Part shown: positions 21,321-51,003 of the stretch, piece after piece | Layout of the letters: each line of letters starts with the position of its first letter | Position numbering within the stretch: the first letter of the stretch is position 1 | Assembly: GCA_002402995.1 (NCBI GenBank) | Contig: DHGX01000001.1 | Location: 85,625-149,624, forward strand | Direction: 5' to 3' | Length of the DNA stretch: 64,000 bases | From: Patescibacteria group bacterium UBA4787 | GTDB lineage: Bacteria; Patescibacteriota; Patescibacteriia; UBA2591; UBA4787 | The notes under the pieces: model-generated | Seen by the model: only the letters and a program-made list of their open reading frames with translations | Told to the model about the DNA's origin: nothing | The model's database searches: none | Program-made: the position numbers and the translations under genes

Positions 21321-21341
21321 TTGTGGAGATAGTATTTATTT

Positions 21342-21553
21342 GGCAAGCAAGGGGAGTTGAACCCCTGTTATCAACTTACTCGTCCTCCGCAGCAGCAGAA
21401 AGCGAGTGAGGGGAATCGAACCCCTGTCATCAGCTTGGAAAGCTGAGGTAATGCCATTATACGACACTCGCACGAACTGTTACGGAGGATGGAGAAAGCT
21501 TCCACCGTCGTTGAAACAACTATGGCGGACAAGGAGGTAATACCGATACCTGC
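21342..21553 (-). pseudogene. Degenerate tRNA-Gly 'shell' interrupted by two palindromic insertions, one carrying the intact tRNA-Gly
   Basis: Minus strand: GCAGGTA TC GGTATTACCTC [ins] AGCTTTC [ins+tRNA] AAGTTGATAAC AGGGGTTCAACTCCCCT TGCTTGC; acceptor stem still pairs; aligns to the inner tRNA-Gly but lacks the 5' D-arm. Confidence 0.7.
21401..21471 (-). tRNA. tRNA-Gly(TCC)
   Basis: GCGAGTGTCGTATAATGGCATTACCTCAGCTTTCCAAGCTGATGACAGGGGTTCGATTCCCCTCACTCGCT folds as a cloverleaf. Confidence 0.95.
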
Positions 21554-21583
21554 CCGTCCAAACTAGAATTCAGAATAAGGAGT

Positions 21584-47665: not shown

Positions 47666-49192
<1,527 letters not shown>

Positions 49193-49338
49193 TAGAGGAT
49201 ATATCCCGACTATATGTCGGGATGGTCGATACTTTTCTTTTCCCTTGGGAATTAAGAGTATTTTCTCAAATATTTGCAACTACAAAAAGCTTAGGAATTT
49301 TTTTATTTAAATTAAAAATTTTAATAATTTTTAACAAA

Positions 49339-49577: not shown

Positions 49578-50111
49578 ATGTACTCCGTGTTGATCGTTGT
49601 TGGTCTTTTTGCAATCATCGGTGTAGCTTCTGCTCTTGCTTCCCGTTCTTTGGAGATGGTTGTCCCTGTGACCATAGCCCTTGCAATCGTCGGTTTATTC
49701 GTCGGCTTGGCCGCCGTTTTGATAATTAGCTTTTTTCTGCCTATTACAACCGACATGATTTTGGTAGATTGTAAGACTTTGGCCGGCGTACAGGATGTTA
49801 ACGGAGTGTATGGTTCTTTTTTTCTCGGTTGTGGCGAAGTGAACGGTGAATTGGTTTATCGATATTTTGAGAAAATCGGAGCCAATTCTTATCGTCCCGC
49901 CGAGATAAGAACGCCATGCGACAGCCGCGTCGAAATCGTGGAAAAAGACGATCTCAAAATCGGCTTCTTAGAAATTTGGCAAACGACTACTTCGCTCCAT
50001 AACCCCAAACTGAAAAATTGGTTTTTTAATCTTGGGGGGGGTTCTAAGTTAGTAAAATTTATCGTGCCCAAGGGCTCAGTCGTCCGCCAATTCCGATTCG
50101 ATTTGCAATAA
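49578..50111 (+). CDS. Hypothetical membrane protein
   Basis: SD AGGAGGT, two TM segments, GSFFLGCG motif; own promoter and terminator. Confidence 0.7.
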   Translation: MYSVLIVVGLFAIIGVASALASRSLEMVVPVTIALAIVGLFVGLAAVLIISFFLPITTDMILVDCKTLAGVQDVNGVYGSFFLGCGEVNGELVYRYFEKIGANSYRPAEIRTPCDSRVEIVEKDDLKIGFLEIWQTTTSLHNPKLKNWFFNLGGGSKLVKFIVPKGSVVRQFRFDLQ

Positions 50112-50201
50112 ATCGCATCAGTTAACCTGCTGTTAATCAACGGCAGGTTTTTATTAATGGTTGATAATCTTGATTTATAAATAATTTATGAAATTAAAAA
50201 A

Positions 50202-50273
50202 TGCCGGAGGTCAGAATCGAACTGACAACGCAAGGATTTTCAGTCCTTCGCTCTACCACTGAGCTACTCCGGC
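50202..50273 (-). tRNA. tRNA-Phe(GAA)
   Basis: GCCGGAGTAGCTCAGTGGTAGAGCGAAGGACTGAAAATCCTTGCGTTGTCAGTTCGATTCTGACCTCCGGCA. Confidence 0.97.
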
Positions 50274-50295
50274 AAATAAATATGTATTTTGTTAA

Positions 50296-50486
50296 TGGGC
50301 ATTTAGTCCACCAGCTGGTGGAGAACCCTAGTCCTCTTCCGCCTGCCCCGTTAAATTTCTGAATGGGCGACCAAGGAATCGAACCCTGTTCTCTTCCGTG
50401 TAAAGGAAATGTTTTACCATTAAACTAGTCGCCCAAGATTAATTTAACGGGGTGGATAAAGGAAGCTTAATCCCTTTATAATACCC
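50296..50486 (-). pseudogene. Degenerate tRNA-Val 'shell' interrupted by an IR element carrying the intact tRNA-Val and by a REP-like palindrome in the T-arm
   Basis: Minus strand: GGGTATT..CTTCCTTTA [ins+tRNA] CGGAAGAGGACTAGGGTTC [TCCACCAGCTGGTGGA] CTA AATGCCCA; acceptor and anticodon stems still pair. Confidence 0.7.
50364..50434 (-). tRNA. tRNA-Val(TAC)
   Basis: GGGCGACTAGTTTAATGGTAAAACATTTCCTTTACACGGAAGAGAACAGGGTTCGATTCCTTGGTCGCCCA. Confidence 0.95.
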
Positions 50487-50501
50487 ATTATTTTTTTAAA
50501 G

Positions 50502-50574
50502 TGGACCCTAGGGGGCTCGAACCCCTCACCTCTTCCATGCCATGGAAGCGCTCTACCAACTGAGCTAAGGGCCC
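50502..50574 (-). tRNA. tRNA-Ala(GGC)
   Basis: GGGCCCTTAGCTCAGTTGGTAGAGCGCTTCCATGGCATGGAAGAGGTGAGGGGTTCGAGCCCCCTAGGGTCCA; G3:U70 pair. Confidence 0.97.
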
Positions 50575-50595
50575 ACACGTTTAACAATTTATAGT

Positions 50596-50678
50596 ATATT
50601 CGTCATGCTTCGTGAAATTGGTTCGCTACGGAATCAGACAAAAAGATTTTTGTCTGTCCCCCTGTTTGCCAATTATAT
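50596..50678. repeat. Dispersed repeat family D (also 55681-55760, degenerate 55757-55850, and 63535-63615)
   Basis: TTATAATTGGCGARCGGAGGAAYAGACAA-Tn-GTCTRATTCYGTAGCGAGYCAATTTCAC...AAGCAAGTATA; this copy is inverted. Confidence 0.8.
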
Positions 50679-50703
50679 AACTTTTGAGATAAAAATCAAG
50701 AGC

Positions 50704-51003
50704 TTAATAACCCTTTTGGTGTCTTTTTTGAATTTTTCTTTTGGTTTTTAAAAAAGCTTTTTCCAAATCAACGTGATGCCTGTTGGCGATGCTGGCCAAA
50801 CAAACTAATAAATCGCCAATTTCTTTTTCCAGATCAATTTTAACTTTTTTGCGATTTTTATTCCCGTCAATTTTCCTAATCATTTCCGCTACTTCGCCGA
50901 ATTCTTCTATTAAAAAAAGAATTTCGGTTTTTTCGTCAACTGGTTTGGAATTTTCTTCCCAATCTTCCCTAACCCAATCTTGAGCTTCTTTTAATTTAGT
51001 CAT
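50704..51003 (-). CDS. MazG-like nucleotide pyrophosphohydrolase
   Basis: LIEEFGEVAE, EKEIGDLL, VDLEKAF. Confidence 0.88.
   Translation of the reverse strand: MTKLKEAQDWVREDWEENSKPVDEKTEILFLIEEFGEVAEMIRKIDGNKNRKKVKIDLEKEIGDLLVCLASIANRHHVDLEKAFLKTKRKIQKRHQKGY

Follow-up and report, generated by a model that had tools for sequence, protein, structure and literature searches.

The only tRNA-Val(UAC) gene of the Patescibacteria genome UBA4787 lies within a 115-bp unit that interrupts the anticodon loop of a second, decayed tRNA-Val gene. We consider it highly probable that this unit is a non-autonomous mobile cassette which killed the resident tRNA-Val(UAC) gene and is now the sole supplier of this tRNA. 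The cassette is likely self-perpetuating, in that its clean loss is likely impossible for the host. The window analyzed here, a stretch of 64,000 nucleotides at C3:85625-149624, belongs to a genome of 765,527 bp in 4 contigs (99% complete), in which 47 tRNAs were called and the cargo of the cassette, at 50364-50434 on the minus strand, is the only one with anticodon TAC. Standard wobble rules leave GTA unread by the GAC and CAC Val isoacceptors; as the predicted sole reader of GTA codons, the cargo is therefore likely essential. The same genome encodes ComEC, the RNA of RNase P and an enzyme of the PolyA_pol family that is of CCA-adding type.

Unless otherwise indicated, features of the locus are given in window positions on the minus strand. 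Three tRNA genes form a run, with tRNA-Ala(GGC) upstream (50501..50574), the cassette-borne Val(TAC) in the middle and tRNA-Phe(GAA) downstream (50201..50274), both neighbors being probable co-transcripts. The insert spans 50456-50342 and consists of a left end reading TCCA (50453..50456), a 12-bp left arm of the CCCCGTTA family (50441..50452), a 6-nt spacer, the tRNA, a second 6-nt spacer, the complementary 12-bp right arm (50346..50357) and a right end reading CAGG (50342..50345), which along with CAAG is a common right end in this orientation. The unit measures 107 bp from arm to arm, and no ORF was found within its 115 bp. In its terminal inverted repeats, small size and lack of a protein gene it resembles a MITE. 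The cargo is intact (64.7 bits against RF00005 and also called by ARAGORN), and its CCA is not encoded. Around the insert, the 5′ half of the dead resident tRNA-Val (50457..50486) retains the acceptor 5′ strand (50486-50480), a decayed D arm, the anticodon stem 5′ strand CTTCC (50465-50461) and loop bases 32-35, TTTA (50460-50457). The 3′ half (50296..50341) extends from base 38 (50341) through the anticodon stem 3′ strand GGAAG (50340-50336), the variable loop, the T arm and the acceptor 3′ strand (50303-50297) to the discriminator. The insert stands in place of anticodon-loop bases 36-37 (CA) of this shell; these target bases are lost, and no duplicated core was found at the ends. A 16-nt palindrome (50307..50322, unstranded) occupies the shell T loop as a later hit on the dead gene, and related palindromes number 18 copies in the genome when both strands are counted. 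In the predicted fold of a 203-nt region, the arms pair with each other and the outer acceptor also pairs (z of -6.4 relative to 200 shuffles). An earlier note, made from the letters alone, had described a tRNA-Val nested in a tRNA-Val-like shell, and every part that it named was found in its place. A promoter scan at the locus returned 2 sites against 1.4 expected, which is no evidence of a promoter. A 16S rRNA gene lies at 47666-49193 (plus strand) of the window, which has no 23S match; next come a 177-aa ORF and the tRNA run in convergent orientation.

With the insert removed and the neighbors masked, the Val shell scored 41.5 against tRNA-Val(TAC) and 23.0 against the best non-Val tRNA, compared with a mean of 8.9 (sd 4.6, maximum 29.9) for 300 sets of shuffled flanks. 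Val was thus the best match, but the margin shrinks under looser gap settings, where the shell scored only 33 versus 29 (non-Val) and 31 (antisense). ARAGORN called no tRNA in the joined shell halves at -ps80. The significance of the Val shell taken alone is moderate; its identity is settled, despite this score, by contigs from related strains.

Two sequencing runs of the probable source sample, which are not independent, span 1 kb of the locus (49900-50900) with zero differences. The nest was also present in four contigs from three other studies: run X5 (50311-50507, depth 2), run X7 (record 3; 50285-50479, depth 3.3), run X8 (record 4; 50288-50520, depth 24) and run X9 (record 6; 50323-50461, depth 3). 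Three of these supporting contigs thus have depths of 2-3.3, and partial matches in runs X6 and X10 were left out. Given the source runs and these four contigs, an assembly artefact is unlikely. The X7 and X8 contigs include the palindrome region, whereas the X9 contig has an intact shell T loop, and the palindrome therefore arrived after the cassette. All four nested contigs read A at 50455 (G>A), giving a left end of TTCA, so the TCCA of the window represents decay; the earlier statement that the insert begins TCCA is correct for the letters here but does not generalize. In record 5 of run X8 (140 nt, depth 37), the end of tRNA-Ala and the spacer lead into a tRNA-Val without interruption. 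Its anticodon arm agrees with 50391-50408, its T arm and acceptor are shell-type, and the 3′ half of the shell matches this allele. It is likely the pre-insertion allele, tied to the locus by 28 bases that are mostly tRNA-Ala. An un-nested, shell-type gene behind tRNA-Ala, the kind of allele that the earlier note had thought worth seeking, is present in this one short contig, and together with the nested contigs it identifies the shell as the resident gene and the inner tRNA as the later arrival.

Of the variable sites listed between 50296 and 50486, 11 in number, none lies in the 71-nt cargo (P about 0.006, assuming independent sites). In genome G003, shell-type 3′ remnants lie behind the same Val cargo type, and in G036 a different Val allele occupies the same arms within a shell that is itself of this cargo type. 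Four relatives in which there are no clear arms (L002-L005; genomes including G002, G005 and G054) have a tRNA-Val(TAC) of 94-97% identity to the cargo, and we therefore regard the cargo as a local allele.

In order to look beyond this locus, GTDB was scanned with a pattern of arm, T-loop motif and arm that selects one arm family. At least 121 loci matched, and at least 84 of them carry a tRNA between the arms, besides the UBA4787 Val locus. The listed matches together with the Val locus (85 cassettes) comprise 20 anticodon types. Of 80 loci with a named source, the 58 that carry a tRNA are assigned to CPR lineages (50), to “bacterium” (6) and to other phyla (2). Among 401 genomes from the phylum, 9 contain a strict cassette pattern, that of UBA4787 included, with 0 control matches; this fraction is a floor because other arm families exist. 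Cassettes measure 96-122 bp from arm to arm (median 107), a range restricted by the search pattern, and three-layer nests were recognized by eye in 6 of the 85.

With neighbors masked, a shell scoring at least 35 surrounds 76 of the 85 cassettes (at L099, on a contig edge, it was scored from the 3′ flank only). The best match was to the cargo's amino acid in 74 of these 76 and to its anticodon in 57, whereas permutation of the same-amino-acid labels gave a mean of 14.5 and a maximum of 28 in 10,000 trials. Only 2 shells had a top match to another amino acid, one of them a tie and the other weak. Antisense shells were nearly absent, with 1 scoring at least 35 and none at least 40. The claim that inner and outer tRNAs are co-oriented and of the same type, made for the window, thus extends to the CPR genomes in which the earlier note had proposed to survey cognate split shells. 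Among control tRNAs, 15 of 151 reached 35, and the ones looked at were, for the most part, tRNA nests or remnants bearing other arms.

In the UBA4787 genome itself, two-sided shells of the same amino acid with scores of 52-99 enclose Arg-TCG (C1:84953), Arg-CCT (C1:166342), Gln-TTG (C2:22568), Glu-CTC (C2:202532), Val-CAC (C2:295245) and Gly-TCC; weaker cases are Val-TAC, Arg-GCG and Ala-TGC. The Gly-TCC nest lies in the window, where tRNA-Gly(TCC) at 21401-21471 sits in a Gly shell on the minus strand (21341..21557, ends approximate). Its arms belong to a different family, in agreement with the earlier observation that the inverted repeats of the Gly and Val loci are unrelated. The Gly(TCC) shell additionally holds an extra hairpin insert. 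Other arrangements were seen alongside these nests. Ile-GAT (C1:59799) and Ala-TGC (C3:152470) are each preceded by their own first ~11 bases and a common insert of another repeat family. Ser-CGA (C1:50234), Asp-GTC (C2:216197) and Ser-GGA (C3:23924) are followed by duplicates of their 3′ ends that have an insert in the T loop; at Ser-GGA this insert contains a GIY-YIG gene. Candidates for a permuted tmRNA at C1:170691-171026 and C2:214490-214867 were reported by ARAGORN at a lowered threshold only, with none at default.

The cargos are foreign to the genes that they interrupt. Stem pairs were tallied wherever the acceptor and T stems of the shell could be read, which was so for 36 of 85, a sample biased towards well-paired shells and in which an arm was taken as the acceptor at L120. 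Of 432 pairs compared between shell and cargo, 265 were equal, 147 compensatory, 12 one-sided and 8 broken; every one of the 36 shells had at least two compensatory differences, and none was identical to its cargo. Cis duplication of the resident gene as the source of the cargo was rejected on the compensatory differences in these 36 shells. By the rule applied here, CCA is encoded in 19 of 85 cargos versus 68 of 173 other tRNAs, and this low share argues against copying from mature tRNA. Cassettes that are 94-97% identical occupy shells only 49-72% alike, as with Arg-TCT cassettes of 94-97% identity that lie in the D loop (L044, L120) or the variable loop (L082) of shells 49-54% alike.

Turnover is visible within the genus. 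In the same-genus genome G001, 19 of 36 recovered tRNAs are 92-100% identical to their UBA4787 orthologues and 17 are less than 90% identical. Six of these 17 (Arg-TCT, Ser-GCT, Ser-GGA, Ser-TGA, Thr-CGT and Val-GAC) are flanked by remains of the UBA4787 allele, in the sense that the flanks fit the intact UBA4787 allele better than their own cargo; the other 11 are unflagged, and several of them have arms by eye. Val-TAC is absent among the 36 tRNAs recovered from the fragmented G001 assembly. At Thr-CGT of G001 (L263, G001:C61), a resident of UBA4787 type is split by two adjacent cognate cassettes with different arm families. Both cargos are only 62-64% identical to the resident, and one appears decayed, with non-canonical bases at several positions. 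In G003, Gly-TCC and Glu-CTC alleles without a nest match the shells of the UBA4787 genome and G001, and the Gly-TCC cargo is identical in the latter two genomes. Mobility of the cassette and replacement of the resident tRNA are well supported. Of the explanations offered in the earlier note, tRNA-replacing mobile hairpins fit best, given the near-identical cassettes in unlike shells and loops, the foreign cargo and the un-nested alleles in relatives.

The ends of the cassettes are conserved as TTCA..CA(A/G)G or the reverse complement CTTG..TGAA, with TTCA the commonest left end and the cargo in sense in both. Among 34 cassettes in the TTCA orientation, 11 lose bases 36-37, 6 lose bases 34-35, 11 lose four bases and 6 show other outcomes. 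The break after position 35, which the earlier note had emphasized, thus applies here but is one class among several (11 of 34 in this orientation). Because this class was defined by match to the cargo, it provides no independent test of cognacy, and alignment gap positions were too noisy for a junction rule to be derived. Other insertions follow base 33 or lie in the D, variable or T loop.

The same arms also bound elements that carry no tRNA. In the UBA4787 genome, 12 of 14 free elements with these arms are flanked by a 4-bp duplication, and none of the 14 contains a tRNA. The arms further bound an element of approximately 283 bp with an 86-aa GIY-YIG gene; this gene is broken by an internal stop in the UBA4787 copy, and another copy is truncated. 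Among the best 80 metagenome relatives of the GIY-YIG element, some of which repeat one site, both arms were present in 69 and a 4-bp duplication in 51 of these 69, most commonly TGAA (18). The shared arms tie the cassette to this family of elements, though integration differs: among the listed matches of the GTDB scan, a 4-bp duplication flanks 27 of 37 non-tRNA matches versus 1 of 85 tRNA cassettes, so the route of movement may differ from that of the GIY-YIG elements.

Nine GIY-YIG matches occur in the UBA4787 genome, and two are inside tRNA shells, namely those of Gln-TTG and Arg-CCT, which enclose a small GIY-YIG gene beside the cargo and are possibly an autonomous form of the cassette. 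In a sequence search of the PDB, the only match to the 86-aa protein was 1zg2 (UPF0213). A strict DNA pattern of arms and GIY-YIG gene, too strict to measure co-occurrence, was found in the UBA4787 genome only (1 of 151 genomes of the class). No match to the Y1 HUH transposase family (PF01797) was found in this genome, which is 99% complete in 4 contigs, and a RAYT or IS200 mobilizer was accordingly rejected. Several families of arm-bounded GIY-YIG elements with 4-bp duplications are present (C2:12605-12887, or L163; C1:152153; C1:125233; C1:26470). In those flanked by TATG, the duplication seems to include the start codon of the gene that follows. In L166-L245, the 4-bp flank seems tied to the element sub-lineage (e.g., TGAA with one inner-arm variant), which suggests either a carried core or lineage-specific target choice. 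A 110-bp element with the same arms lies between two PF01743 matches at C1:44777-44886, within the frame of a 558-aa enzyme of CCA-adding type.

Resemblance between cargo and target is detectable but loose. Anticodon-stem identity to the shell averages 0.74 for the cargo versus 0.64 for other tRNAs of the same anticodon (n=51, p=4e-4), while acceptor-stem identity is 0.69 versus 0.70. The longest exact tract shared by cargo and shell has a mean of 13.2 nt, versus 9.9 nt for other same-anticodon tRNAs (n=66, p=0.006); these p-values are overstated because the genomes are related. Exact tracts of at least 20 nt occur in 14 cases, and the cargo is strictly the best match in 15 cases versus 6.5 expected, although shared tracts could stem from later gene conversion in cis, in view of L080 and L152, which have a duplicated arm plus 5′ half. 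At least one compensatory stem-pair difference from the cargo is present in 24 of 31 anticodon-loop cases. As far as these comparisons indicate, homology appears to aid targeting only loosely, and tight homology does not appear to be required. Second hits on one gene remain cognate, both in the three-layer nests and at the G001 Thr-CGT double hit. That the cassette is directed by its sequence to the tRNA gene of its own kind has, in our estimation, slightly better than an even chance of being correct.

We propose the following route. The cassette would start from arms that belong to the family of free elements and of the approximately 283-bp GIY-YIG element. The GIY-YIG protein, acting in trans, would free the cassette with its 4-nt ends and cut a tRNA loop at CA/TG, a step that is somewhat likelier to hold than to fail. 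Joining would not be ordinary transposition, because the duplication is absent and 2-4 target bases are often lost. The cassette would then be steered to a tRNA gene of its own kind, a pattern evident in the shells, and the guide, in which the cargo or donor tRNA halves would likely base-pair loosely with the target, is by a small measure the probable mechanism. The co-oriented cargo would be transcribed within the old Ala-Val-Phe transcript and released by RNase P and 3′ trimming, after which CCA would be added. Clean loss of the cassette would be lethal, since it would leave a shell without bases 36-37. Around a cargo that does not change, shell and arms would subsequently decay and gather palindromes, and the cargo could turn into the next shell, both as seen in relatives.

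Other histories could in principle produce a tRNA nested in a tRNA. It is quite unlikely that rescue took place at the site itself, with an empty arm element breaking the gene, a foreign cognate tRNA later captured or swapped in by means of the arms as recombination handles, and selection retaining only cognate, co-oriented captures. The earlier note had raised rescue by insertion of a fresh copy, of which only this form is kept as a rival, the cargo being a foreign allele and not a copy of the shell. Empty arm elements do occur inside shells (L041 and the UBA4787 Glu shell), the cargo is always in sense although the TTCA/CAAG polarity flips among cassettes, and different Thr-CGT alleles lie at the same arms and site in G001 and G003. 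Yet the intermediate would be without an essential tRNA, near-identical units of arm, spacer and tRNA are found at different loops and in different genomes, and the 14 other UBA4787 arm pairs are free of tRNA. Homing by homologous recombination, in which rare nests spread by natural transformation and the donor shell halves recombine with an intact cognate gene, possibly aided by a SegB-like cut, is unlikely as the main route and may act as a secondary one. It would account for cognacy, orientation, shared junctions, three-layer nests and the long exact tracts between cargo and shell (13.2 versus 9.9 nt); ComEC is present in the genome, and tRNA genes are spread by T4 SegB, which cuts at motifs of tRNAs (PMC2330249, available text). 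The same cassette is nevertheless found at different loops, and the cassettes of L035 and L130 are 94% identical while the anticodon stems that flank them match neither one another nor the cargo, which means that the flanks did not travel. The origin of nests at 20 anticodon types would also be left unexplained.

Untargeted insertion into any tRNA loop, followed by the persistence of only those cassettes that replace what they kill, is likewise improbable. It agrees with the cargo being the sole reader of GTA here, with the low cargo-target identity that is tolerated (62-64%) and with L071 (near 401-510), where a Thr-GGT cargo lies in the T loop of an apparent Thr-TGT remnant beside another nested Thr-TGT. 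Survival alone, however, predicts landings of other amino acids in dead shells, which are neutral and common (6-9 of the 47 UBA4787 tRNAs); their near absence (2 of 76 non-cognate) points to targeting beyond survival, and the G001 Thr-CGT double hit is cognate though one cassette entered a dead gene. We regard as very unlikely that the unit is the remnant of a larger integrative element, such as a prophage or island with tRNA-dependent integration, that eroded to its essential tRNA. Mycobacteriophages follow the same logic (PMC10865867, available text), and GIY-YIG genes lie beside the cargo in the Gln-TTG and Arg-CCT shells. Against such erosion stand the tight length (96-122 bp, though limited by the pattern), ends made of inverted arms instead of an att core, the lack of a duplicated core, and a cassette scan of viral contigs that gave 2 matches, neither with a tRNA. 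It is barely credible that the insert is an intron which is spliced out to yield a working outer tRNA. The break after base 35 resembles the tRNA intron site of Patescibacteria group I introns, which favors such a reading. So does the predicted intron of Lak phage tRNA-Thr, which may encode a tRNA (PMC6784885, available text). An Rfam search up to E = 1 nevertheless turned up no intron in the insert, bases 36-37 are missing, the D and T arms of the shell are decayed, its joined halves give no ARAGORN call, and variation is concentrated in the shell rather than the cargo. A spliced tRNA intron was rejected, given no Rfam match to a ribozyme core and joined exons that did not give a full tRNA.

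The mobile cassette that we favor resembles several known systems in part. Bacterial MITEs are short elements without a protein gene that share terminal inverted repeats with an autonomous transposase partner and generate a target-site duplication. In outline the cassette corresponds to a cargo-bearing MITE: it is short and shares inverted arms with a probable autonomous partner, and free members of the arm family duplicate 4 bp. Unlike MITEs, tRNA cassettes are without a duplication (1 of 85; TCCA/CAGG at this locus), have constant 4-nt ends, delete target bases and are confined to cognate tRNA genes, and the candidate partner is a GIY-YIG protein and not a DDE transposase.

For mycobacteriophages with tRNA-dependent lysogeny (Guerrero-Bustamante and Hatfull 2024, PMC10865867), the available text describes a host tRNA gene that is disrupted without being rebuilt while a tRNA of matching isotype is carried by the phage. 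The cassette similarly breaks a tRNA gene of its host and brings along one of like isotype that the host likely needs for survival. As far as that text goes, however, lysogeny involves a whole phage, a tyrosine integrase and a shared core of ~10 bp, whereas the cassette has ~115 bp, a tRNA as its only gene, inverted arms, loss of target bases and a range of many tRNAs and loops. The Ssn nucleases (Chenal et al. 2025, PMC11893778) are lone GIY-YIG domains that, in the text available, cut single-stranded DNA beside their own NTS/SRM repeat; SsnA lowers integration of flanked DNA, mobility is only proposed, and the authors liken the repeat-flanked arrangement to an insertion sequence. In like manner, the GIY-YIG protein of the partner element is under 100 aa, single-domain and flanked by repeats on both sides, and the host has ComEC. 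In contrast, the SRM motif was present in 1 of 80 GIY-YIG loci and absent at the Val locus, and neither tRNA nor Patescibacteria is mentioned in the available portion of that paper. T4 SegB, according to the available text of PMC2330249, is a GIY-YIG enzyme by which tRNA genes are spread; it cuts on recognition of a tRNA motif, the overhangs being mostly 3′ and of 2 nt, and a 2-nt target loss would fit such a cut. It differs in that a whole gene region homes from phage to phage, with no nested tRNA and no inverted arms in that text. SegB and SsnA are analogies for the proposed role of the GIY-YIG protein.

In the Lak megaphages, a predicted intron of tRNA-Thr(TGT) may encode a tRNA (PMC6784885), which would also place tRNA-like sequence inside another tRNA gene. 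In the available part of that report, though, it is a conserved putative phage intron, and the text reports neither arms nor loss of target bases, nor that the outer gene has decayed. The literature covered, mostly main texts open to non-subscribers, held no published description of a tRNA cassette nested in a cognate tRNA, and the nested design is apparently undescribed, this Lak phage tRNA “intron” being the nearest case in the text consulted (PMC6784885). The design lacks a defining feature of each of these: tRNA-dependent integrative elements, MITEs, introns, REP/RAYT and the SRM system.

We tentatively hypothesize, as a proposal somewhat likelier to be wrong than right in its full form, that these units are “homing tRNA cassettes”, a Patescibacteria class of minimal addictive elements in which a tRNA gene lies between two arms. 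A tiny GIY-YIG protein, as a novel type of transposase, would mobilize them in trans, and their own tRNA would guide them to the cognate host gene, which they would destroy and supplant, so that tRNA genes circulate horizontally. If this is true, many tRNA genes, even among members of one genus, would be exchanged in repeated rounds. The 86-residue GIY-YIG protein is a possible mobilizer with integration that finds the cognate gene, and could give a compact tool for targeted insertion. A selfish DNA of ~115 bases likely makes itself indispensable without a protein of its own. The nests offer a visible mechanism for tRNA gene turnover in the genus, in which 17 of 36 tRNAs are divergent and 6 of them lie in the remains of old alleles. 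The nests also caution against the use of tRNA genes as lineage markers in Patescibacteria, where they are poorly suited to this purpose, and nests in these genomes are at risk of being mis-called as introns or split tRNAs.
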